Assembly: GCA_022711495.1 (NCBI GenBank)
Contig: JAKLEX010000001.1
Span: 151,058-215,057, forward strand
From: Patescibacteria group bacterium
GTDB lineage: Bacteria > Patescibacteriota > Minisyncoccia > Phycocordibacterales > JAACPR01
Direction: 5' to 3'
Length of the DNA: 64,000 nt
Positions 4,934 to 45,297 of the stretch are shown here, piece by piece. The translations under genes and the position numbers were made by a program. Position 1 is the stretch's first letter. Each line of letters opens with the position of its first letter. The notes beneath the pieces are model-generated. The model had not been told where the DNA came from. It was given only the letters and a program-made list of their open reading frames with translations, and did not search any database.

Positions 4934-4937
4934 TCTG

Positions 4938-5312
4938 TGGAGATGGCGGGAATCGAACCCACGTGCAAACAAAGCCGGCACATACTTCTACAAAGTCTAG
5001 TTTATCTTTTGTATTCGGTCGCTAAGCTAAAAGATAAACAGAACACTTAGCAACCTAAGCCCTTGATTTTGAAATGAATTCGGGCGGAAACATTTCTAGC
5101 TTGATGATTGTCGCCTCAGCTGATTTATCAAGCTTCAATCAGTAAAACGTCGCTTAGGCTAAAGCGTAAGCGAATGCAAAGTCGCCAACCCGATAGGGTG
5201 AAGCGATAGCTTTTGAATTCTCTGCACTTAAATTTTGTCGCCTTTTTAAGAGTTACGACAGCTCTACTTTGCGCATATGTCGTGCGTTTGCCTGTCTAAG
5301 CCGATCATCCCC
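4938..5312 (-). ncRNA. ssrA: tmRNA (SsrA), about 375 nt, CCA not encoded
   Basis: 5' GGGGAUGAUCGG... (reverse complement of 5301-5312). 3' ...GGUUCGAUUCCCGCCAUCUCCA (reverse complement of 4938-4963). It forms a 7 bp acceptor stem with the G3:U wobble. The internal tag frame ...GAC UUU GCA UUC GCU UAC GCU UUA GCC UAA (..DFAFAYALA stop) is the reverse complement of about 5154-5190. smpB is immediately upstream on the same strand. Confidence 0.8.
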
Positions 5313-7983: not shown

Positions 7984-7995
7984 AACTTATTTCTG

Positions 7996-8068
7996 TGCAC
8001 CAACTAGGACTCGAACCTAGGACCACAGAGGTATAAGCTCTGCGCTCTACCAACTGAGCTATTGGTGC
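7996..8068 (-). tRNA. tRNA-Ile (anticodon UAU)
   Basis: Hand-folded cloverleaf with a 7 bp acceptor stem, D-arm AGCUCAGUUGGUAGAGC, anticodon stem CAGAG/CUCUG with loop CUUAUAC, T-arm GGUUCGAGUCC. The UAU anticodon is unusual. Confidence 0.7.
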
Positions 8069-36665: not shown

Positions 36666-36738
36666 GCCACCTTAGCTCAGTTGGTAGAGCAACGGTTTTG
36701 TAAACCGTAGGTCGTCGGTTCAAGCCCGACAGGTGGCT
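36666..36738 (+). tRNA. tRNA-Thr (anticodon UGU)
   Basis: GCCACCU acceptor stem, anticodon stem ACGGU/ACCGU with loop UUUGUAA, T-arm GGUUCAAGCCC. Confidence 0.8.
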
Positions 36739-36747
36739 CCCGATAAC

Positions 36748-38304
36748 ATGGATGCAAACTATAAAGATACACCTTATTTTCATGTGGCGCACGCTCGGGA
36801 TTTAAAAGGGAAAGACCGCGCTCTTTATCGTCTTCTGGAAATCTTCCCCGGAGTTCTTTCTTGGGGGACTTTAATCGGCATTGTCTTGATCTCTATTTAT
36901 AAACCGGTAGTCGCAGCGATTTTTATTATCGCTTTTGACTTGTATTGGCTGTTAAAAACAATTAATTTAGGTTTTCATCAATATCACAATTGGCGCCGCA
37001 TGAAACACAATCTGGCCCAAGATTGGTACGCGGAATTAGCCAAGTTCAGATATGAGCACTTGCAACATCTGGTTCTTCTGCCTTTTTATGATGAAGAAGA
37101 ATCTGTTGTTGAAACTTCGTTGAGGGCGATTGTTAATTCTCAATATCGCAAAGAAAACCTGCACGTCGTTTTGGCAACCGAGGAACGCGCTGGTGAAAAA
37201 GCTCAAGAAATTGCCAAAAGATTAAAGTCAAAATATCAAGGTCAAATCGGGGAAATTTTAATTACCATTCATCCGAAAGATTTGCCCGGCGAAATTTCCG
37301 GCAAGGGCCCTAACATTAGTTACGCCGCCGAGGAAGCCAGATTAAAGATTATTAACGCCAACAATTGGAAATACGAGGATGTTATCGTCTCGGCTTTTGA
37401 TGTTGATACGGTCGTTGGTCCGCAGTATTTTGCTTGTTTGACTTGGCATTTTCTAACTGAACCCGAACCGTTAAAAAAATCTTTTCAGCCGGTTCCTTTG
37501 TATAACAATAATATCTGGGAGGCACCATTTTTGTCGCGAATCGCCGCTATGTCCAGCACTTTTTGGCAGATGATTCAGCAGGAAAGACCGGAAAAATTAG
37601 TGACTTTTTCTTCACACGCCGTTCCTTTTAAAACTTTGTATGAAGTGAATTATTGGCAGAGAAACATGATCTCTGATGACTCTAGAATTTTTTGGAATTT
37701 GTTTTTGGCTCATGACGGAGATTATTCAGTGGTGCCGATCGCTTATCCGGTTTCTATGGATGCTAATTTGGCGCCGACAATCTGGCAAACTTTTAAGAAT
37801 GTCTATAAACAGCATCGTCGCTGGATGTGGGGCGTGGAAAATATTCCTTATCTTTTATTTGGTTTTATTAAAAACAAAAAGATTCCTTTAATAAAGAAAC
37901 TCCAACACTTACAAATCCAAATTACAGGATTCTGGTCACTGGCGACAAATCCACTCCTGATTTTATTTCTCGGATGGTTGCCGATAATTTTAGGCGGCGA
38001 TGAATTCCGGACGACTGTTTTGTCTTATAATCTGCCAAAAGTTACTCGTGGTCTGATGTTTTTGGCCATGGTTGGTCTGGTTTTGTCGGCCGTCATCGCC
38101 GTCAGTTTGATTCCGCCTTTGCCGCCGACATACGGCAAAAGAAAAAGACGCTGGACGGCCATGATTCTGCAATGGGCGCTTATCCCTTTTTCAATCATTA
38201 TTTTCGGATCTATCCCCGGGCTGGATTCGCAAACTCGGCTTATGATTGGCGCCTATTTTGGAAAGTTTTGGGTTACGCCGAAACATCGTAAAGAACTTTC
38301 ATGA
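36748..38304 (+). CDS. Polytopic family-2 glycosyltransferase (cellulose-synthase-like, QxxRW motif)
   Basis: D..D and QHRRW motifs, with N- and C-terminal TM bundles. The ORF track start at 36733 overlaps the tRNA, so the ATG at 36748 is used. Confidence 0.6.
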   Translation: MDANYKDTPYFHVAHARDLKGKDRALYRLLEIFPGVLSWGTLIGIVLISIYKPVVAAIFIIAFDLYWLLKTINLGFHQYHNWRRMKHNLAQDWYAELAKFRYEHLQHLVLLPFYDEEESVVETSLRAIVNSQYRKENLHVVLATEERAGEKAQEIAKRLKSKYQGQIGEILITIHPKDLPGEISGKGPNISYAAEEARLKIINANNWKYEDVIVSAFDVDTVVGPQYFACLTWHFLTEPEPLKKSFQPVPLYNNNIWEAPFLSRIAAMSSTFWQMIQQERPEKLVTFSSHAVPFKTLYEVNYWQRNMISDDSRIFWNLFLAHDGDYSVVPIAYPVSMDANLAPTIWQTFKNVYKQHRRWMWGVENIPYLLFGFIKNKKIPLIKKLQHLQIQITGFWSLATNPLLILFLGWLPIILGGDEFRTTVLSYNLPKVTRGLMFLAMVGLVLSAVIAVSLIPPLPPTYGKRKRRWTAMILQWALIPFSIIIFGSIPGLDSQTRLMIGAYFGKFWVTPKHRKELS

Positions 38305-39287
38305 TTCCATTATCCAGAAAAACCCGAAGACGCGTCTTTCTCATTCTTTTGCTGGTTTTTATCTTGCTGGCGCCGGTAATTTTGGCCCGATCTTTGGGAT
38401 ATCGGCTTGAACAGCTGGAAGACATTTTTACTTTGGTAAAAATGGGCGGAATTTATCTTCATTCTGATGTTGTCGGAACGCAGATATATTTAGATGGCAA
38501 ATATGTTGAAAAAAGTGGTCTGTTGTTGAGAAATACTCTGATTCAGGATTTGAAGCCAGAGAGGGAATATAAAGTTACTGTCGTTAAAGACGGGATGCAT
38601 TCTTGGGAGAAAACTCTGGCTGTTTATCCGGGCGTTGTAACGGAAGCCCGAGTTTTGATGTTGCCGACAGAAATCGCTAGCGCCGAAATTTATCCTTTTA
38701 CCGATAAAAACGGAATGGGCACGACAACGCCGCAGACTTTTGTCTCAATTCAAAACGGTATTCCAACAAATCCGGAATATCTAAATTTGCAGAAACTTTT
38801 TAAAGAAGCTACGACGACGCCCGAACAAAAGACAATCGCATCCGCCAAAAACGCGGTTTCTACGACAACCAATATAAAATCTATTCCGAAATATTTCTCA
38901 GAACTTGGAGTTTCCGACCCTGACGCTTTGGAGAATTTGATAATTAGGGGCGATTCGGTTCTTTGGCTATCGGATGGGAAGGTTCTGGTTCACTGGGTTT
39001 CCGAAGACAGTGTCGCGCCTTATTATTACTGTCTTGATTTCACGAAGTGCCGTGAAGTCATAACGGTTTCTCTCGATGAACCAATAATTTCCTTTGATTT
39101 TTTGCCTGGACGAGATGATGTTTTAGTTGCCCTGACTTCTGGAGGATTATTTGCCGTGGAAATTGACGACCGTTCCGAAAGAAATATTCAGCCCGTATAT
39201 CTGGGTGAAAATCTAGAGTTTAGAATTGATTCAAAAGATCAAATCGTTATATTAGACTCAGACATTTTTTCCGTTCTTCGTTTCTAA
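38301..39287 (+). CDS. Hypothetical membrane-anchored protein with a PEGA-like beta-sandwich region
   Basis: N-terminal TM. YLDGKYV...YKVTVVKDGMHSWEK resembles a PEGA domain. Confidence 0.45.
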   Translation: MIPLSRKTRRRVFLILLLVFILLAPVILARSLGYRLEQLEDIFTLVKMGGIYLHSDVVGTQIYLDGKYVEKSGLLLRNTLIQDLKPEREYKVTVVKDGMHSWEKTLAVYPGVVTEARVLMLPTEIASAEIYPFTDKNGMGTTTPQTFVSIQNGIPTNPEYLNLQKLFKEATTTPEQKTIASAKNAVSTTTNIKSIPKYFSELGVSDPDALENLIIRGDSVLWLSDGKVLVHWVSEDSVAPYYYCLDFTKCREVITVSLDEPIISFDFLPGRDDVLVALTSGGLFAVEIDDRSERNIQPVYLGENLEFRIDSKDQIVILDSDIFSVLRF

Positions 39288-39351: not shown

Positions 39352-40047
39352 ATGAATGAGGAAAAGGGGCATGTTCACATAATAAATCAAATCGCCGACG
39401 ATATCGTCAAAGTCTTTACCGACATTGGTTTTGAGGTCGTATCCAGCAATGAAATTGAAGACGAATATCACAATTTTGATGCCTTGAACGTCCCCAAAGA
39501 TCATCCAGCTCGAGACATGCAAGATACTTTTTGGCTAGCCACAAATCCGGCCAGTTTATTGCGGACCCACACTTCATGCGCCCAGGTCCGCTATATGGAG
39601 AAAAATAAGCCGCCGTTCAAAATTGTTATTCCAGGCAAAGTTTATCGTTATGAAGCGACAGACCGAACTCATGAGGCGCAGTTTCATCAAATTGAAGGAC
39701 TCGTAGTCGGGGAGAACATTAACATGGGACATCTAAAATTTGCCCTTAATAATTTCTTGAAAAAACTTTTCGGAGAAAATACCGAAATAAGATTTCGCCC
39801 CGGATATTTTCCGTTCGTTGAGCCAGGTATTGAAATTGATATGCGCCGAAAAAACGGCGAATGGGTGGAAGTCTTGGGGGCCGGCATGGTTCATCCAAAC
39901 GTTTTGAATAATGTCGGCATTGATCCGAAAAAATACAGTGGTTTTGCTTTCGGTGCCGGATTGGACCGCCTGGCCATGATTAAATACGGGATAGACGATA
40001 TTCGCGGACTTTACAATGGTGATTTGCGTTTAATCAATCAATTTTAA
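39352..40047 (+). CDS. pheS: Phenylalanine--tRNA ligase alpha subunit (catalytic core only, 231 aa)
   Basis: Class II aaRS motifs (HPARDMQDTF, FRPGYFPFVEPG, GAGMVHPNVL). It lacks the usual N-terminal extension. Confidence 0.85.
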   Translation: MNEEKGHVHIINQIADDIVKVFTDIGFEVVSSNEIEDEYHNFDALNVPKDHPARDMQDTFWLATNPASLLRTHTSCAQVRYMEKNKPPFKIVIPGKVYRYEATDRTHEAQFHQIEGLVVGENINMGHLKFALNNFLKKLFGENTEIRFRPGYFPFVEPGIEIDMRRKNGEWVEVLGAGMVHPNVLNNVGIDPKKYSGFAFGAGLDRLAMIKYGIDDIRGLYNGDLRLINQF

Positions 40048-40056
40048 ACTATCGTT

Positions 40057-42429
40057 ATGCTCGTTTCCTACAACTGGCTAAAAGAATATTTCAGGAGATT
40101 GCCAAAACCGGAAAAATTGGCGGATCTTTTGAACAGGCGGTCATACGAAGTTGAGGGTATTGAAAAAATTGACGGTGATTCTGTTATGAATATTGATGTT
40201 CTGCCGAACCGCGCGCACGACTCCTTGTGTCACTATGGCGTGGCCAAAGAAATCTCAGCTATAACCGGCAGAAAATTTTTGGATAAACTGGCCGATTTGG
40301 AAAAACCGGCCGCGACCCAAAAGGGGACGATAAAAGTTCAAGTTTCGGATAATTTCTGCAAAAGATATATCGCTCGGCAGATTGATAATATTGAAATAAA
40401 AGATTCGCCGCAGGAAATCAAGGACAAGTTGAAATCTTTGGGTCAGAAATCCATAACCAATTTGGTGGATATCACCAATATCGTAATGTTTGAAATGGGG
40501 CAACCAATGCATGCCTTTGACGCCGATAAGCTCTCCGGCGAGACGATTTTTGTTCGGAGCGCTAAAGACGGCGAACAAATTACAACCTTGGACAAACAGG
40601 AAGTAATTTTAACCGCCGCGGATTTTGTTATTGCCGATGGCCGAGACGCCTTGGCTATGGCTGGAATTAAGGGCGGTAAAAAAGCCGAAATTGATGCCAG
40701 CACCAAAAATATTGTGCTTGAGGCGGCCAATTTTGATCCAGTCAGCGTAAGGAAAACTTCAAGAAGAAGCGGTGTCGCGACCGAATCATCCAAGCGTTTT
40801 GAGAACGAGATTTCACCGGTTTTGGCCGAAAAGGCGGTTGAGTTGGCTACGGATTTAATACTTAAATATGCCTCATCGGACAAGACTATTGTCCACGATT
40901 CGGTTGATTTTTATCCACGCCCGGTCAGGAAATATTTAACTGGCGTTTCTTCGACCGAAGCCTCAAGACTACTTGGCGTAAAATTAAGTGACAGAAAAAT
41001 CCGCAAGGTTTTGCGAAGACTAGATTTTGAATATCAGATCGTTCGTCCCAGATTAGCCGTTGCGGAAGAAGCTCAAAAATACATCGGCAAGAAATATAAG
41101 TACGGCGCCAGCGTTAGATTTGACTCGCCAGAGAGTTTTGACTGCTCGTCTTTCGTGGCTTATGTTTTTGCTAACGCCGCCGGTTTGGCTTTGCCGAGGA
41201 TTTCCGCCGACCAGTTTGCTTTTGGTGAAGAAATCAAAAAAGAAGAATTGGAGCCTGGCGACTTGGTTTTTTGCAATACGGGAAAATTGGAAATAAAAAT
41301 CCACGAAAAAACCTCGGAGTTTTTGCCGGGTACGAAAATCATCGGCGGCGTTGATCACGTTGGAATTTATCTTGGAGAAGACAAGATTGTTGACGCTAGC
41401 CGATATAACGAAAGCGGAGTTGAAATTCATTCATTATCCGGTCATCCAACTTTTTCAAAAAACCCACGTTTTGCCCGTGTTATAAAAGATAAAACCCGCT
41501 TCGTCGTCTCTGTTCCAGAAAGACGCTTGGACATCGGTAACAGAAAGGGAATCGATTTGAGCAGTGGCATTGAACTTATTGAGGAAATTGGGCGGATTCT
41601 CGGTTATGAAAAAATCCGCGATCTTGAAATTCCATCTGACGATTTTCAACCAAGAATACCGAAAGTTTATTCCTATAATAATTTAATCAGAAAAACTTTG
41701 GTTGATTTGGGCTTTTCGGAAATAATCACTTATACCTTTGTTAATTCCGGCGAGATTTCTCCGGAGAAGCCGTTGGCGGACGACAAAGCTTTCCTCCGCG
41801 CCGATTTACGATCAGGCATGGCCGGTTCCTTAGAGAAAAATCTTAGAAATGTTGATTTGCTCGGTTTAGATCAAGTTAAACTTTTTGAAATTGGCAAGAT
41901 TTTCAAGAAAGACGGGGAAAAACTTGCTTTATCTATCGGTGTAATAAACAAAACCGGCTTCAAAAAACTTACCTCGGCGGAAAGTTTGCGATCGGCCGTG
42001 AAAGCCCTGGAACAAGCCTTTGGAACAAAAATCGGCGTGGAAATTTCTAATTCCGACACCGGAATTGAAATAGATTTAGATAAATTATATGACGCTCTGC
42101 CGGTGCCGAAAGAATTGTTTAAGTTGTCGGAAGTCGTGTCCGCGCGCTACCAGCCGATTTCTGCGTTCCCATTTGTTTTGAGAGACATTGCCGTTTGGCT
42201 ACCGGACGAAGTTGAGGCATCAAAATTACTGGAGGTCATAAAAAAACACTCTAGCGATTTGCTCGTTACCAGCAGATTGTTTGATGTCTACAAAAAATCT
42301 GGCAGAACTTCTTACGCTTACAGATTAGTTTTCCAATCCGGTCAAAAAACCCTGACTGATGCTGAAATAAATGAAATCATGAAAGCTATCACCGACGATT
42401 TAGCAACTAGGGGCTGGGAGGTGAGATAG
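40057..42429 (+). CDS. pheT: Phenylalanine--tRNA ligase beta subunit, lacking the N-terminal tRNA-binding domain and carrying an NlpC/P60-like insertion (about residues 328-490, nt 41038-41526) within the B5 domain
   Basis: B3/4 (PMHAFDADKL), B5 (LGVKLSDRKIRKVLRRLDFEYQ ... RRLDIG...IEEIGRILGYEKI) and a C-terminal FDX-ACB domain. The insert carries FDCSSFV, PGDLVFC and DHVGIYLG motifs. Confidence 0.85.
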   Translation: MLVSYNWLKEYFRRLPKPEKLADLLNRRSYEVEGIEKIDGDSVMNIDVLPNRAHDSLCHYGVAKEISAITGRKFLDKLADLEKPAATQKGTIKVQVSDNFCKRYIARQIDNIEIKDSPQEIKDKLKSLGQKSITNLVDITNIVMFEMGQPMHAFDADKLSGETIFVRSAKDGEQITTLDKQEVILTAADFVIADGRDALAMAGIKGGKKAEIDASTKNIVLEAANFDPVSVRKTSRRSGVATESSKRFENEISPVLAEKAVELATDLILKYASSDKTIVHDSVDFYPRPVRKYLTGVSSTEASRLLGVKLSDRKIRKVLRRLDFEYQIVRPRLAVAEEAQKYIGKKYKYGASVRFDSPESFDCSSFVAYVFANAAGLALPRISADQFAFGEEIKKEELEPGDLVFCNTGKLEIKIHEKTSEFLPGTKIIGGVDHVGIYLGEDKIVDASRYNESGVEIHSLSGHPTFSKNPRFARVIKDKTRFVVSVPERRLDIGNRKGIDLSSGIELIEEIGRILGYEKIRDLEIPSDDFQPRIPKVYSYNNLIRKTLVDLGFSEIITYTFVNSGEISPEKPLADDKAFLRADLRSGMAGSLEKNLRNVDLLGLDQVKLFEIGKIFKKDGEKLALSIGVINKTGFKKLTSAESLRSAVKALEQAFGTKIGVEISNSDTGIEIDLDKLYDALPVPKELFKLSEVVSARYQPISAFPFVLRDIAVWLPDEVEASKLLEVIKKHSSDLLVTSRLFDVYKKSGRTSYAYRLVFQSGQKTLTDAEINEIMKAITDDLATRGWEVR

Positions 42430-42477: not shown

Positions 42478-43074
42478 ATGGAACAAAAGAAAGGAAAGAA
42501 AATGAAATCTGTTTTGAATGTTCCTTATTTCTCTCAGAACTCTGATTCGGTGCCGAAAGAGTGGCACGATTCTGCTTGTGGTATCGCTACGGTGAAGATG
42601 GTTTTGGCATTCTTGAACGGGGAATCTCCGGACATGTCTTTTCTTTTGCGAGAAGGGCAGGCCATCGGCGGTTTTACCGAAAAAGGTTGGAGGCACGAAT
42701 CTCTGGTTAGGATTTTAAGAAACCACGGCGTTTTGGCTTATCCGCAAGAATTCGTCAGCACCAGCGTTCAGATTGATGAAGTTTTTGGAATAACCAGAAT
42801 GCGCGGAAAAGATGACGAGAATTTTTCAAAAATCGGCTTGCAGAAGATACTCTCAAAACTTTCGTCGGGTCTGCCGGTTATCGTTTCTGTTTCGCCAAAG
42901 TTTAATGGGAACAAACACTCACACCTGATACTGATTATTGGTTATGATCAAACCACGGAATCTCTCTACTATCACGATCCAGATTCCCGCGACGGGACGG
43001 AATTAAAAGCCGCGCCTATCAGCACCAAAAACTTTCTGAAATTTTGGCGCAGATTGGCCATTTTTCCAAATTAA
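42478..43074 (+). CDS. Peptidase C39-like domain protein (papain-like cysteine peptidase fold)
   Basis: VPYFSQ...ACGIATVKMVL...HLILIIGYD...YHDP pattern of the C39_2 family. An alternative start is the ATG at 42502, which has an AAGGAA Shine-Dalgarno sequence. Confidence 0.5.
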   Translation: MEQKKGKKMKSVLNVPYFSQNSDSVPKEWHDSACGIATVKMVLAFLNGESPDMSFLLREGQAIGGFTEKGWRHESLVRILRNHGVLAYPQEFVSTSVQIDEVFGITRMRGKDDENFSKIGLQKILSKLSSGLPVIVSVSPKFNGNKHSHLILIIGYDQTTESLYYHDPDSRDGTELKAAPISTKNFLKFWRRLAIFPN

Positions 43075-43164: not shown

Positions 43165-45297
43165 ATGACTAAAAAAGAACAGCCCCAAAAGTCCGAAAAA
43201 GCCCCAAAAAATGGGGCTAAAAATGGCCTAAAAAAGAAGGGAAATGGACATCTCTATAATGCCGATGAGATTGTCGTTTTAGAGGGCCTGGAACCGGTCA
43301 GGAAGCGTCCAGGAATGTATATTGGTACCACTGGACCAGAAGGTCTTCAGCACCTGGTAACGGAGATTTTTGACAACTCGCGCGATGAAGCCATGGGCGG
43401 GTTCGCCGATCATATTGAAGTCGCCCTGCTCCCGAATGGCTACGTTCGAGTAGCCGACAACGGTCGAGGAATTCCGGTTGACAAGCATAAACAAACTAAA
43501 GTTTCTGCCTTAGAAACTGTCATGACAACTTTGCACGCCGGCGGAAAATTCGGCGGAGAAGATAGCGGCTACAAAGTTTCCGGCGGATTGCACGGCGTTG
43601 GTGCGTCCGTGGTTAACGCTCTTTCCGAACACCTAATCGCCGAAGTTCACCGCGACGGGAAAAAATATTTTCAGGAATATCATATCGGCAAAAGGAAAGC
43701 GGCGGTGAAAGAAATCGGCAAGACAGATTACACCGGTACGGTCATTACTTTTAAACCAGATGCCTCTATTTTTGAGACGACGGAATTTGATTTCAAGAAA
43801 ATCATTGAGCACTTGCGTTTGCAAGCCTATTTGGTTAAGGGGCTGCGCATCACGGTTATTGATGCTAAAGAGCATAAGGATAAAATTAATTTAGACGAGG
43901 TTCTTTATGTAACCGAAACAGACGCTCCTGTTTTATCAAAGACTTTTTATTTTGAAGGAGGCCTGGCTTCGCTGGTAAGTTTTAAAAACAAATTCCTGAA
44001 ACCGGTTCACAGAAATATTTTTTACGTGGACAAAGCCGATGCCGACTCCAAAGTTGAAGTAGAAGTCGCTCTTCAATACGTTGATGACATTTCTCCTCGT
44101 TTAACGGCTTTCGCCAACAATATCTACAACAGCGAAGGTGGCACGCACTTGACCGGATTCAAAACCGCTTTGACAAGAAGCTTGAACAATTACGGCAAGA
44201 AAAATAATTTAATCAAAGAAGCTGATGGCGGATTTACCGGCGATGACGCTTTGGAAGGTATAACCGCGGTGGTTTCTGTGAAAATGGCCGATATTCAGTT
44301 TGAAGGTCAGACAAAGTCTAAGCTTGGTTCAACCGAAGCTCGTGGCGCAGTTGAGGCCGTTTTCAGCGACGCCTTTAACGCCTTTCTGGAAGAACATCCG
44401 GACGACGCGCGTTCAATCATCAATAAGGTTGTTTTGGCCTTAAGAGCCAGAAAAGCGGCCAAGGCGGCCAAAGATTCCGTTTTGAGAAAAGGCGCTCTTG
44501 AGGGCATGACTTTGCCGGGCAAGCTGGCTGATTGTCAGACGAAATCTGCCGAAGAATCAGAGTTGTTTATCGTTGAGGGAGATTCAGCCGGCGGTACGGC
44601 CAAGACCGGAAGAGATCGGCGAACTCAGGCGGTTCTACCTCTGCGTGGAAAGATTTTGAATGTTGAAAGAGCTCGTCTGGATCGCATGCTGACCTCGGAG
44701 CAGATAAAGAATCTGGTCGTGGCCATGGGTACGGCTATCGGAGACACTTTTGATTTGGCCAAATTACGCTATCACAAAATTATCATTGCCACCGATGCCG
44801 ACGTGGACGGTGCGCACATTAGAACGCTACTTTTAACTTTGTTTTATAGATATTTCAAACCGATAATAGATGGTGGTTATTTGTATATCGCTCAACCACC
44901 ACTTTATAAAATATCTCGCGGAAAAGAAATTCACTATGCCTTTAGTGACGAAGAAAAAAATAAACTGATTGGCAAAAACGCAGAAATTCTTGACGAAGAA
45001 ACTGACGCAAATTCCGCCCCAGCCGAGGAGCTCGGCGATGAAGCTGGCGATAAGAACGCCGCTGCCAAAAAACCTGAAACCAAATGGCGAATTCAGCGAT
45101 ACAAAGGTCTCGGGGAAATGAATTCCGAGGAGTTGGCCGAGACGACTATGTCCGTTAAAAATCGTGTTCTCAAAAAAGTTACCATTGAAGACGCCATTGA
45201 AGCCGATTCAATCTTTGACATGCTGATGGGCACGGACGTTCCGGCCAGAAAGTTTTATATTACAAACAACGCCAAGTACGCTGATCTGGATATTTAA
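43165..45297 (+). CDS. gyrB: DNA gyrase subunit B
   Basis: GHKL ATPase, Toprim (EGDSAGG) and a C-terminal tail, 710 aa. Confidence 0.95.
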   Translation: MTKKEQPQKSEKAPKNGAKNGLKKKGNGHLYNADEIVVLEGLEPVRKRPGMYIGTTGPEGLQHLVTEIFDNSRDEAMGGFADHIEVALLPNGYVRVADNGRGIPVDKHKQTKVSALETVMTTLHAGGKFGGEDSGYKVSGGLHGVGASVVNALSEHLIAEVHRDGKKYFQEYHIGKRKAAVKEIGKTDYTGTVITFKPDASIFETTEFDFKKIIEHLRLQAYLVKGLRITVIDAKEHKDKINLDEVLYVTETDAPVLSKTFYFEGGLASLVSFKNKFLKPVHRNIFYVDKADADSKVEVEVALQYVDDISPRLTAFANNIYNSEGGTHLTGFKTALTRSLNNYGKKNNLIKEADGGFTGDDALEGITAVVSVKMADIQFEGQTKSKLGSTEARGAVEAVFSDAFNAFLEEHPDDARSIINKVVLALRARKAAKAAKDSVLRKGALEGMTLPGKLADCQTKSAEESELFIVEGDSAGGTAKTGRDRRTQAVLPLRGKILNVERARLDRMLTSEQIKNLVVAMGTAIGDTFDLAKLRYHKIIIATDADVDGAHIRTLLLTLFYRYFKPIIDGGYLYIAQPPLYKISRGKEIHYAFSDEEKNKLIGKNAEILDEETDANSAPAEELGDEAGDKNAAAKKPETKWRIQRYKGLGEMNSEELAETTMSVKNRVLKKVTIEDAIEADSIFDMLMGTDVPARKFYITNNAKYADLDI

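Follow-up and report, generated by a model that had tools for sequence, protein, structure and literature searches.

The window, that is, the whole stretch of 64,000 nucleotides analysed here, comes from a bacterium of the Paceibacteria (CPR/Patescibacteria) and includes the pheS-pheT operon for its housekeeping PheRS. The PheT encoded there raised the question of whether a cysteine hydrolase of the NlpC/P60 type is built into this essential enzyme and, if so, what such a domain may be doing there. To our knowledge, bacterial aaRSs rarely bear unrelated catalytic domains. No published description of an NlpC/P60 domain nested in PheRS was found in the literature searched; PMC6744442 mentions PheRS only as an example of clustering.

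The host enzyme

The pheS gene (39352..40047, forward strand) encodes a PheRS alpha subunit of 231 aa, which is reduced to the catalytic core (Pfam tRNA-synt_2d, 4.3e-99). Its score with TIGR00468 is 317.7 bits (cut-off 237.45), the match beginning at profile position 67, so that the N-terminal coiled-coil extension is missing. The pheT gene (40057..42429, forward strand) starts 9 nt downstream of the end of pheS and encodes a beta subunit of 790 aa; it is the sole pheT match in the window, and no two of the compared loci (n=80) originate from the same assembly, statements that do not extend to whole genomes. PheT scores 412.9 bits with the pheT_bact equivalog model TIGR00472, which is above the cut-off of 402.65, and has the domain order of bacterial PheRS beta: B3_4, B5, CLM and FDX-ACB. 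In the full-length protein Pfam recognizes B3_4 at residues 101–272 (2.9e-59), only the N-terminal half of B5 at residues 298–327, tRNA_synthFbeta at residues 537–633 (4.8e-10) and FDX-ACB at residues 702–787 (5.8e-22). The latter two form the catalytic-like module and the anticodon-binding domain (residues 537–787; 41665..42417, forward strand). The mean pLDDT of the AF2 model of PheT is 89.7.

The B3/4 editing domain (40357..40872, forward strand) retains the residues of the editing site, namely N141, H152 and E222 as well as T242 just past the domain end. The equivalents of E. coli N254, H265 and E334 are each kept in 121 of 121 sequences and that of T354 in 120 of 121. With scores over the cut-offs, an adjacent pheS and invariant B3/4 residues, the PheRS parts are intact, and the host protein still looks like the working PheRS. 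The invariance of the editing residues also disfavors an option considered in the initial sequence-only reading of this DNA, namely that the insert substitutes for editing; this was rejected as the main reading.

The same reading had described PheT as devoid of the N-terminal tRNA-binding domain and PheS as devoid of its N-terminal extension, and both descriptions are correct. No match to PF01588 (tRNA_bind, the N-terminal B2 domain) was found in PheT, and its alignment to TIGR00472 begins at profile position 158. B2 is missing clade-wide with the exception of P0061, P0066 and L003, where B2 and the insert are both present. Since the insert-less relatives likewise have neither B2 nor the PheS coiled coil (PheS of 234–248 aa, PheT of 571–700 aa), the loss of B2 and of the PheS extension is a trait of the whole clade that is unrelated to the insert.

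The operon lies in a neighborhood of translation genes (rpsB, tsf, prfA, pheST, gyrB). The gyrB gene (43165..45297, forward strand), assigned by Pfam domains in the loci of relatives, is the downstream anchor of the syntenic block, lies outside the module and is found downstream in insert-bearing and insert-less loci alike.

Insertion site and structure of the nested domain

An NlpC/P60 domain had been proposed inside the B5 domain of PheT at 41038–41526, which corresponds to residues 328–490. A Pfam NLPC_P60 (PF00877) match is indeed located in this region (residues 344–462, 1.2e-18, 67.5 bits at a gathering cut-off of 23), and the excised insert alone (163 aa) yields 73.1 bits (2.1e-20). The insert is bracketed by the alignment of PheT to the S. 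haemolyticus protein (2rhs_B), in which residues 40–331 of the query match residues 160–449 of the chain and residues 484–621 match residues 453–590. It follows from these breakpoints that ~152 residues stand in place of ~3 in the B5 hairpin. In insert-less relatives the same position is occupied by 6–14 residues. B5 is accordingly divided into an N-terminal half (residues 296–331; 40942..41049) and a C-terminal half (residues 484–530; 41506..41646), and the nested NlpC/P60 (MEROPS C40-type) cysteine hydrolase domain lies between them (residues 332–483; 41050..41505), all on the forward strand. The C-terminal half of B5 contains invariant R490 and D492 as well as a rare extra loop of 8 aa (residues 494–501) that is present in 5 of 121 sequences and has low pLDDT.

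In the predicted structure the nested domain has a papain-like alpha+beta fold that can be superposed on those of solved P60 domains. Its best structural matches are peptidoglycan endopeptidases, and its identity to 7cfl is 36%. A family-specific extra hairpin (residues 409–431; 41281..41349, forward strand) is situated between the PGDLVF and DHVGIY motifs; it is predicted to form beta strands, harbors the conserved residues E421, F422, P424, G425, T426 and G431 and is missing in 7cfl and in the other aligned solved P60 domains. The model of B5 together with the insert reaches a pTM of 0.86, because of which the domain is predicted to be held rigidly on PheT, at the tip of the B5 hairpin. Neither an N-terminal signal sequence nor a wall-binding module (LysM, SH3b, coiled coil) or any other non-PheRS Pfam domain was found in PheT.

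Mean pairwise identity is 0.50 for the NlpC core, 0.51 for B3/4 and 0.44 for the remaining part of PheT. By this measure, purifying selection on the nested domain is as strong as that on the editing domain.

Catalytic residues

The motifs that had been picked out from the sequence alone, FDCSSF, LPRISADQ, PGDLVF and DHVGIY, have their counterparts in the aligned catalytic motifs of solved P60 domains such as 7cfl_A. Cys363 (codon 41143..41145, forward strand) of FDCSSF corresponds to the cysteine motif SFDCSG of 7cfl and belongs to a helix formed by residues 363–375 in the model. His434 (codon 41356..41358, forward strand) is part of VDHVGIY. Both residues are present in 121 of 121 sequences. 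The intact triad inferred earlier is therefore right as regards Cys363 and His434, but not as regards its third member: this is Asp446 of KIVDAS (codon 41392..41394, forward strand), which the alignment pairs with the MIHAS His of 7cfl, and not His458 of EIHSL, which falls in a non-conserved column (E83/S10/G10/Q8). The column of position 446 is composed of H115, D3, Y2 and N1 (n=121). Among insert-bearing proteins (n=214) the triad is CHH in 198, CHD in 5, CHY in 3, CHN in 2, CHQ in 2 and degenerate in 4, Cys and His being kept jointly in 210. All conserved residues of the insert belong to generic motifs of P60 DL-endopeptidases. Taken as a whole, the profile, structure-prediction and comparative data support the view that B5 of PheT harbors a nested cysteine-peptidase domain of the P60 type whose triad is intact, an architecture that is non-standard for an aaRS. 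It is due to the nested insert that annotation pipelines label such PheT proteins only as "related".

Distribution of the insert

Each of the 120 best-matching homologues, drawn from JGI, NCBI, ENA and Logan assemblies, shows the nested architecture. So do 214 of the 264 relatives that were aligned, and in all the architecture appears in more than 200 independent sequences of 37–67% identity. The insert is not unique to the source genome, then; it is widespread in Paceibacteria and, judging by these homologues, is a clade-wide feature of the group.

Insert-less relatives (n=49) are scattered among the insert-bearing ones. The presence or absence of the insert requires 11 Fitch changes versus ~29 at random. 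A neighbor-joining (NJ) tree of 264 representatives gave 29 state changes; this tree is near star-like at 45% identity and for this reason was not relied on, nearest-neighbor identities and bootstraps being used instead. For L006, L007, L049, L008, L085 and L005 the nearest neighbor is insert-bearing in 291–300 of 300 bootstraps, with differing partners. These relationships point to a minimum of five independent losses or gains of the insert. PheRS can dispense with the insert, given its repeated disappearance from close relatives. Fission of the gene in the insert-less lineages was rejected: no free-standing NlpC/P60 was found in any of 45 insert-less loci.

The downstream C39_2 peptidase

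The gene following pheT (42478..43074, forward strand; 198 aa) had been taken for a C39-like papain-fold cysteine peptidase, which agrees with its match to Pfam Peptidase_C39_2 (PF13529; 1.7e-14, 55 bits versus a cut-off of 24). Neither a signal peptide nor a TM segment was found in this protein. Residues Q20, C34 and H149, the papain-type Gln/Cys/His set, and W190 are kept in 27 of 27 sequences, similarity to solved papain-fold proteases is weak (e.g. IdeS, E 2.7e-4), and only 17 single-domain homologues were found by a word-index search. Anti-phage defense models (PADLOC) gave no match for either the insert or the C39_2 protein.

The juxtaposition of the two peptidases had been remarked on, and comparison of the loci shows that it goes beyond coincidence. 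The C39_2 gene adjoins pheT in the window, L001, L002 and L004 and is nearby in L003; L005, L006 and L008, which have no insert, also lack the gene, and L008 is otherwise identical to the window in synteny. It occurs at 25 of 37 insert-bearing loci versus 1 of 35 insert-less ones (p=2.6e-9) and, when only synteny-matched loci are considered, at 21 of 32 versus 1 of 24 (p=1.6e-6). In an unbiased ORF-family association test C39_2 was the top family (26 versus 1). A reverse search that started from C39_2 revealed an insert-bearing pheT upstream in 32 loci and a complete insert-less pheT in none. There are exceptions on both sides: 11 of 32 insert-bearing loci have no adjacent C39_2 (the gene may lie elsewhere in the genome), and the insert-less locus L046 keeps it. 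The presence of the insert is tightly coupled to the C39_2 gene, the two being found together and lost together.

A second architecture

Giovannonibacteria-like relatives have a stand-alone NlpC/P60 gene directly upstream of a gene for a single-chain PheRS (L127, L135, L137, L162 and L163), and the two genes overlap by 4 bp in 3 of these 5 loci. The single-chain PheRS comprises only tRNA-synt_2d and FDX-ACB and consequently has no B3/4 editing domain. Genes for C39_2 and for an M24 aminopeptidase often follow downstream (M24 in L127, L137 and L163); adjacency to ddl was observed at one locus only, L137. As regards a possible common origin of the stand-alone proteins and the insert, their reciprocal profile scores are modestly above those to Firmicutes P60s, but an exclusive clade of the two was obtained in 0 of 100 bootstraps.

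Proposed function

Within a major, uncultivated radiation of bacteria, an essential enzyme bears a conserved thiol hydrolase with an intact triad, and the gene of a partner peptidase is gained and lost alongside. The reading that we prefer, with a probability of about one half, sees in the nested domain a cysteine amidase/peptidase that operates in the cytoplasm as an accessory module, is mounted on PheRS and works with C39_2; the activity and substrate of the domain are inferred, and there are no biochemical data. PheT would then be bifunctional, with the nested domain as an active cytoplasmic amidase/peptidase, and this domain together with the C39_2 enzyme would constitute a two-peptidase accessory module located physically on PheRS. 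Every one of the domain's closest relatives is a gamma-D-Glu-diamino-acid (DL-) endopeptidase, and peptidase and ddl genes lie nearby in relatives; the likeliest chemistry would therefore be hydrolysis of peptide bonds of an unusual kind, gamma-D-glutamyl-type or other. Cell-wall-derived or imported peptides in the cytoplasm may serve as substrates for peptide salvage or turnover; in the absence of biochemical data, this assignment rests on family resemblance alone. PheRS could act as a scaffold, or the coupling might tie the release of amino acids to tRNA charging. If peptides are indeed degraded, nutrient salvage would be physically linked to tRNA charging in organisms that are unable to make amino acids. 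Whatever the substrate, three small expressible proteins offer a testable handle on CPR physiology.

Several points count against a peptidase module. Peptidoglycan DL-endopeptidases normally work outside the cytoplasm. There is no obvious reason for building a muropeptide or peptide hydrolase into PheRS specifically, and the linkage to PheRS in two architectures could mean that the substrate is a product of PheRS. The NlpC/P60 domain would in that case deacylate (mis)acylated tRNA-Phe or the aminoacyl-adenylate, or transfer from them, via a thioester intermediate, and would represent a new proofreading or aminoacyl-transfer factor acting in cis in the window clade and in trans in Giovannonibacteria. 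An aminoacyl-tRNA substrate would mean new quality control or tRNA-dependent transfer. We regard this as possible, though unlikely. It is favored by the independence of the two architectures (nested domain, and adjacent or overlapping upstream gene), by the lack of B3/4 in the single-chain PheRS and by the rigid position of the domain on PheT. In addition, esters are processed via thioester intermediates by papain-fold enzymes of the Cys-His type, among them LRAT-like proteins of the NlpC/P60 superfamily. However, the canonical editing site is fully conserved in the window clade, so a substitute is not needed, and repeated losses of the insert have left PheRS visibly unchanged. Furthermore, the conserved residues are generic for DL-endopeptidases, the top structural matches are peptidoglycan endopeptidases, and the coupling to C39_2 and to the M24 aminopeptidase is better suited to peptide catabolism. 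Likewise rather unlikely is a thiol enzyme dedicated to PheRS, either nested in PheT or encoded by the coupled gene upstream of the single-chain PheRS without editing domain, whose substrate would be aminoacyl- or peptidyl-tRNA-Phe. It would either proofread a non-cognate product or take up Phe as a thioester and pass it to an acceptor, for instance a cell-wall precursor or a peptide, with C39_2 in the same pathway; editing or aminoacyl transfer on a papain fold would then be a novel class of activity associated with aaRSs.

General oligopeptide catabolism without any link to the cell wall seems doubtful to us. An auxotrophic symbiont would obtain amino acids from imported peptides through NlpC/P60 and C39_2, joined in relatives by aminopeptidase P, and fusion to an aaRS would merely secure co-expression with translation genes. 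Such a role is consistent with the three peptidase families around PheRS in L127, L137 and L163, with the translation-gene neighborhood and with the absence of export signals in both cysteine peptidases. Nevertheless, no general peptidases are known among P60 domains as close to DL-endopeptidases as the present one (36% identity to 7cfl), and co-expression explains neither the precise rigid insertion into B5 nor the 4-bp overlaps.

We consider it very improbable that the domain is not catalytic and serves instead for structure or binding (of tRNA, DNA or a partner, for example), making up for the missing B2 and PheS coiled coil. Both of these accessory tRNA-binding modules are indeed missing from the PheRS of the window, and catalytically dead P60 domains do exist (e.g. 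the RipD model match). Yet Cys and His persist in nearly all of the insert-bearing sequences along with all active-site motifs, and P0061, P0066 and L003 possess B2 in addition to the insert. Compensation was rejected since insert-less relatives share both losses, which leaves nothing specific to compensate. Finally, an artefact of assembly or gene calling, or a functionless selfish or neutral insertion (intein, mobile element), is suggested only by the unusual architecture and by the NCBI name "beta subunit-related protein", and is effectively refuted by the comparative data: the insert is in-frame with a GC content of 0.44–0.46 like its flanks, has no flanking repeats except 12–14-nt chance ones, gives no match to intein (Hint/LAGLIDADG) or transposase families in Pfam and NCBIfam, is as conserved as the editing domain and recurs in the more than 200 independent sequences, which excludes the assembly error named at the outset as a possible refutation.

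Comparison with known systems

The peptidoglycan DL-endopeptidases C. difficile Acd24020 (7cfl), B. subtilis CwlO/LytE, E. faecium SagA and E. coli MepS/Spr are secreted or lipoprotein autolysins, usually equipped with wall-binding domains. In contrast, the nested domain has no signal peptide, resides inside a cytoplasmic aaRS subunit and adds the conserved hairpin of ~20 aa and a C-terminal extension. B. subtilis YkfC is a cytoplasmic NlpC/P60 enzyme of murein-peptide recycling, a gamma-D-Glu-L-Lys/mDAP endopeptidase. From general knowledge, it is similar to the proposed module in being an intracellular P60-type cysteine peptidase that acts on cell-wall-derived peptides and is encoded beside other peptidases, and it differs in being free-standing, in its SH3b domains and in belonging to a peptide-recycling operon; we know of no link of YkfC to an aaRS.

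In E. coli glutathionylspermidine synthetase/amidase (GspSA; 3a30, 2io7) the amidase is an N-terminal fusion, whereas the PheT domain is a nested insertion, and the ligase partner is an ATP-grasp enzyme instead of a class II aaRS. The amidase of GspSA reverses the product of its own ligase, which is unproven for the PheT insert. The editing domains of aaRSs (CP1 of Leu/Ile/ValRS, INS of ProRS and B3/4 of PheRS) are likewise hydrolases inserted in or appended to an aaRS, but their folds are unrelated and none of them is a thiol hydrolase, and the present PheT also keeps its canonical B3/4 site.

The PheRS of the Giovannonibacteria-like genomes shares the PheS core and FDX-ACB with the single-chain mitochondrial-type PheRS (TIGR00469) and with the "PheS-related mystery ligase SrmL" (NF051887), unlike the window, where PheRS is of the classical two-subunit type. 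Its scores with both models are 227–229 bits, below both curated cut-offs (258 and 300 bits). A single-chain mitochondrial-type PheRS in these genomes merits attention for the evolution of aaRSs quite apart from the insert.

Domain organization of PheT and position of the insert

The pheT gene (40057-42429, + strand) is an ORF of 790 aa that starts 9 nt after pheS (39352-40047, + strand, 231 aa). The protein is matched in Pfam by B3_4 (residues 101-272, 2.9e-59), the N-terminal half of B5 (298-327), NLPC_P60 (344-462, 1.2e-18, 67.5 bits vs a gathering score of 23), tRNA_synthFbeta (537-633) and FDX-ACB (702-787). The excised 163 residues score 73.1 bits against NLPC_P60 by themselves, and residues 334-461 match P60 endopeptidase models of NCBIfam. 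In the alignment to solved PheRS structures, residues 40-331 correspond to residues 160-449 of S. haemolyticus PheT (2rhs_B) and the match resumes at residue 484 (residue 453 of the latter), so that about 152 residues stand in place of about 3 at the tip of the B5 hairpin. The coordinates and motifs that the sequence-only reading had assigned to this NlpC/P60 insert are therefore correct, save for one catalytic residue.

The C-terminal half of B5 harbors an extra 8-residue loop, GNRKGIDL (41536-41559, PheT residues 494-501), which is present in only 5 of 121 homologues, the closest relatives of the window genome, and is modelled with low confidence (pLDDT ~62). An antisense ORF of 125 aa lies within the insert (41053-41430, - strand); most likely it is a shadow of the strongly conserved sense frame, and it has no support as a gene.

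With 412.9 bits, the window PheT only slightly exceeds the 402.65-bit cut-off of the NCBIfam pheT equivalog. Perhaps this TIGR00472 score is only ~10 bits above the cut-off because the insert splits the alignment. Such proteins are often named "phenylalanine--tRNA ligase beta subunit-related protein" or "hypothetical protein" by NCBI. The low margin together with these vague names suggests that genuine PheT genes may be under-called in CPR genomes.

Active site and fold of the nested domain

His458 of the "EIHSL" motif had been proposed as the third residue of the catalytic triad, but its alignment column is variable. The third catalytic residue is Asp446 of "KIVDAS", which aligns with the His of "MIHAS" in the solved P60 domain of C. 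difficile Acd24020 (7cfl); this column is His in 115/121 homologues. Cys363 and His434 are invariant in 121 sequences, as are F361, D362, G376, R381, Q386, G401, D402 and F405. The triads of 214 insert-bearing proteins from both database searches are CHH (198), CHD (5), CHY (3), CHN (2) and CHQ (2), and only 4 proteins have a degenerate one; the triad is intact with or without the adjacent C39_2 gene described below. Mean pairwise identity is 0.50 for the NlpC core, on a par with the B3/4 editing domain (0.51), and 0.44 for all non-insert positions. Conservation of triad and motifs along with this level of identity argues that the insert is maintained as an enzyme: by sequence comparison, an intact P60-type thiol hydrolase domain is kept by selection inside an otherwise complete PheT.

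The AlphaFold2 model of the whole PheT (56-sequence alignment) has a mean pLDDT of 89.7, with ~90-96 over the insert. For B5 plus insert the pLDDT is 89.5 and the pTM is 0.86, the latter predicting a fixed relative orientation of the two.

The host protein as PheRS

The E. coli editing residues N254, H265, E334 and T354 have conserved counterparts in 120-121 of 121 sequences. This conservation in B3/4 argues against the insert being a substitute for editing, an option put forward by the sequence-only reading. There is a single pheT, a single NlpC/P60 domain and a single C39_2 gene in the window, and no two of 80 species-representative loci come from one assembly.

The absence of B2/tRNA_bind from PheT and of the N-terminal coiled coil from PheS, both noticed from the sequence, is common to the clade. 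Insert-less relatives (PheS of 234-248 aa, PheT of 571-700 aa) miss both, and a few proteins (the relatives P0061 and P0066, and that of locus L003) combine B2 with the insert; compensation for the lost parts by the insert is therefore rejected. B2 is kept only in these ~900-aa forms. The missing coiled coil and B2 (39352-40047 and 40057-40356) imply a reduced tRNA-binding mode of PheRS in these bacteria.

Genomic coupling to a C39_2 peptidase

The next gene after pheT (42478-43074, + strand, 198 aa), earlier read as a C39-like papain-fold peptidase, indeed matches Peptidase_C39_2. Gln20, Cys34, His149 and Trp190 are kept in 27/27 sequences of this family, and no signal peptide or TM segment was found in it. 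The order pheS, pheT(insert), C39_2, gyrB recurs in the related loci L001, L002 and L004 (64% and 43% identity), and L003 carries its C39_2 gene 2 kb downstream. The insert-less L008 has the same whole syntenic block as the window, but pheT is followed directly by gyrB without C39_2, which is also missing in the insert-less L005 and L006.

Among 72 informative loci, C39_2 occurs within 6 kb downstream in 25/37 insert-bearing vs 1/35 insert-less ones (p=2.6e-9), and 24 of 26 downstream C39_2 genes are directly adjacent. With synteny controlled (gyrB within 4 kb downstream) the counts are 21/32 vs 1/24 (p=1.6e-6). An unbiased ORF-family association ranks C39_2 first (26 insert-bearing vs 1 insert-less, p=6e-10; only p=6e-6 for the runner-up). 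In the reverse search from C39_2, 73 metagenome loci have gyrB (49) and PheS/PheT (48) as recurrent neighbours; an insert-bearing pheT lies upstream in 32 and a complete insert-less pheT in none, pheT being truncated in 11. These counts are not phylogenetically independent, but independent contrasts agree (L008 vs window and L001; L006 vs L029; L047 vs L013 and L027). The nested domain and a cytoplasmic C39_2 peptidase are thus coupled at the genome level. No terminator-like site was found between window pheT and C39_2, which is weak evidence for their co-transcription.

The sole exception, L046 (6001-8727), has an insert-less pheT with C39_2 271 bp downstream and may be an intermediate state. 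L151 (994-2098) carries C39_2 in two tandem copies, with no pheT visible upstream on this short contig.

Distribution and loss of the insert

An exhaustive representative search yielded 7,888 PheT-like proteins (E<=1e-30). Among the best 150, proteins of 606-694 aa align to the query in two or three separate segments, of which the first stops near residue 327; in the alignment 49 relatives have a 6-14-residue hairpin instead of the insert. By name, the larger groups without the insert belong to Nomurabacteria and Portnoybacteria, and the loci with it to Paceibacterota, Zambryski-, Kaiser-, Taylor- and Campbellbacteria. Mean identity is 0.45 within each class and 0.445 between them, and several insert-less proteins have an insert-bearing closest relative (60-69% identity vs ~50% to any other insert-less protein). 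Judging from these identities, proteins without the insert do not form a deep branch of their own.

The neighbour-joining tree of 86 species-representative loci requires 11 state changes vs ~29 for shuffled states. In 291-300 of 300 bootstraps L006, L007, L049, L008, L085 and L005 each have an insert-bearing nearest neighbour, with differing partners, and at least five independent gain or loss events are inferred. Most simply these were losses, since all inserts share one site and the same family-specific features; weak evidence is added by the relative P0213, whose remnant "DL-EGKF" matches the end of the sister insert, "DLDEERF". The question of its distribution among related PheT, raised by the sequence-only reading, is answered in that the nested domain is clade-wide and repeatedly lost.

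A parallel arrangement with single-chain PheRS

In L127 (=L128), L135 and L137 a stand-alone NlpC/P60 gene of 156 aa (Pfam 4e-22; insert profile 6e-29) is followed, either after 10 bp or with a 4-bp overlap, by a single-chain PheRS-like gene of 383-410 aa, ahead of C39_2. Over all loci the single-chain protein (382-410 aa) consists of the PheS core, tRNA-synt_2d, plus FDX-ACB and has no B3/4 editing domain. Its scores of ~227 bits on pheS_mito and ~229 on "PheS-related mystery ligase SrmL" of NCBIfam are both below cut-off. It lies upstream of gyrB (L127:2759-3910; L137:2304-3536; L162:6450-7598; L163:6483-7667), and in Giovannonibacteria-like CPR genomes it is found where the window clade has pheST. 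The adjacency, with a 4-bp overlap, is also present in L162, a complete 651-kb genome (CP066687.1) with gyrB downstream and no C39_2, and in L163, where C39_2, M24 and gyrB follow; the more distant L164 lacks it. NlpC/P60 is tied to PheRS in two ways, nested within it or, in this split version, encoded tightly next to it, and the place relative to gyrB is the same.

The stand-alone family comprises ~80 clusters with Giovannonibacteria and Yanofskybacteria names. Its profile and that of the insert score slightly higher on each other than on Firmicutes P60s (92 vs 71 and 100 vs 83 bits); bootstraps lend no support to an exclusive clade of the two, so their common descent is unresolved.

An M24 aminopeptidase follows C39_2 in L127 and L137. 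A D-Ala-D-Ala ligase gene (L137:3560-4501, Dala_Dala_lig_C 1.9e-48) lies between the PheRS-like gene and C39_2, with a 4-bp overlap into the start of the latter; no other direct peptidoglycan-precursor gene was seen within the module, and this one occurs at a single locus.

Possible function

The nested domain may be an active cytoplasmic amidase/peptidase that acts as an accessory module on PheRS with C39_2 as its partner, the activity being inferred. Most likely its substrates would be gamma-D-glutamyl-type or other unusual peptide bonds of cell-wall-derived or imported peptides, as inferred from family resemblance and the neighbouring ddl and M24 genes. The main rival substrate is the PheRS product, aminoacyl-tRNA, which would account for the persistent linkage to PheRS, especially beside the enzyme without B3/4, but is harder to reconcile with an editing site that is conserved, an insert that was lost repeatedly and peptidase genes nearby. 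A non-catalytic, neutral or artefactual insert is poorly supported. PF00877 lies inside PheT in all 120 best homologues (43-100% identity; those named are Paceibacterota, Campbellbacteria or Patescibacteria) from independent JGI, NCBI, ENA and Logan assemblies, which rules out an assembly artefact, and a mobile insertion is ruled out by GC content equal to that of the flanks, no meaningful flanking repeats and no intein or transposase domains in PheT by Pfam and NCBIfam.

The NlpC/P60 match is already present in precomputed annotations, as is the "beta subunit-related" label at NCBI. A topical literature search, including the name "SrmL", found no published description. Both aaRSs with accessory domains and P60 hydrolases are of known kinds; what is genuinely surprising is their linkage.

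Other features of the window

Two genes always precede pheS in the syntenic block, whether or not the relative carries the insert: a GT2-family membrane glycosyltransferase (38301-39287) and a conserved protein without Pfam match (36733-38304), whose L008 counterpart shows a faint PEGA match. A tmRNA (4937-5312, - strand) and a tRNA-Ile with anticodon TAT (7995-8068, - strand) are also encoded; the latter is an uncommon bacterial way to read AUA.
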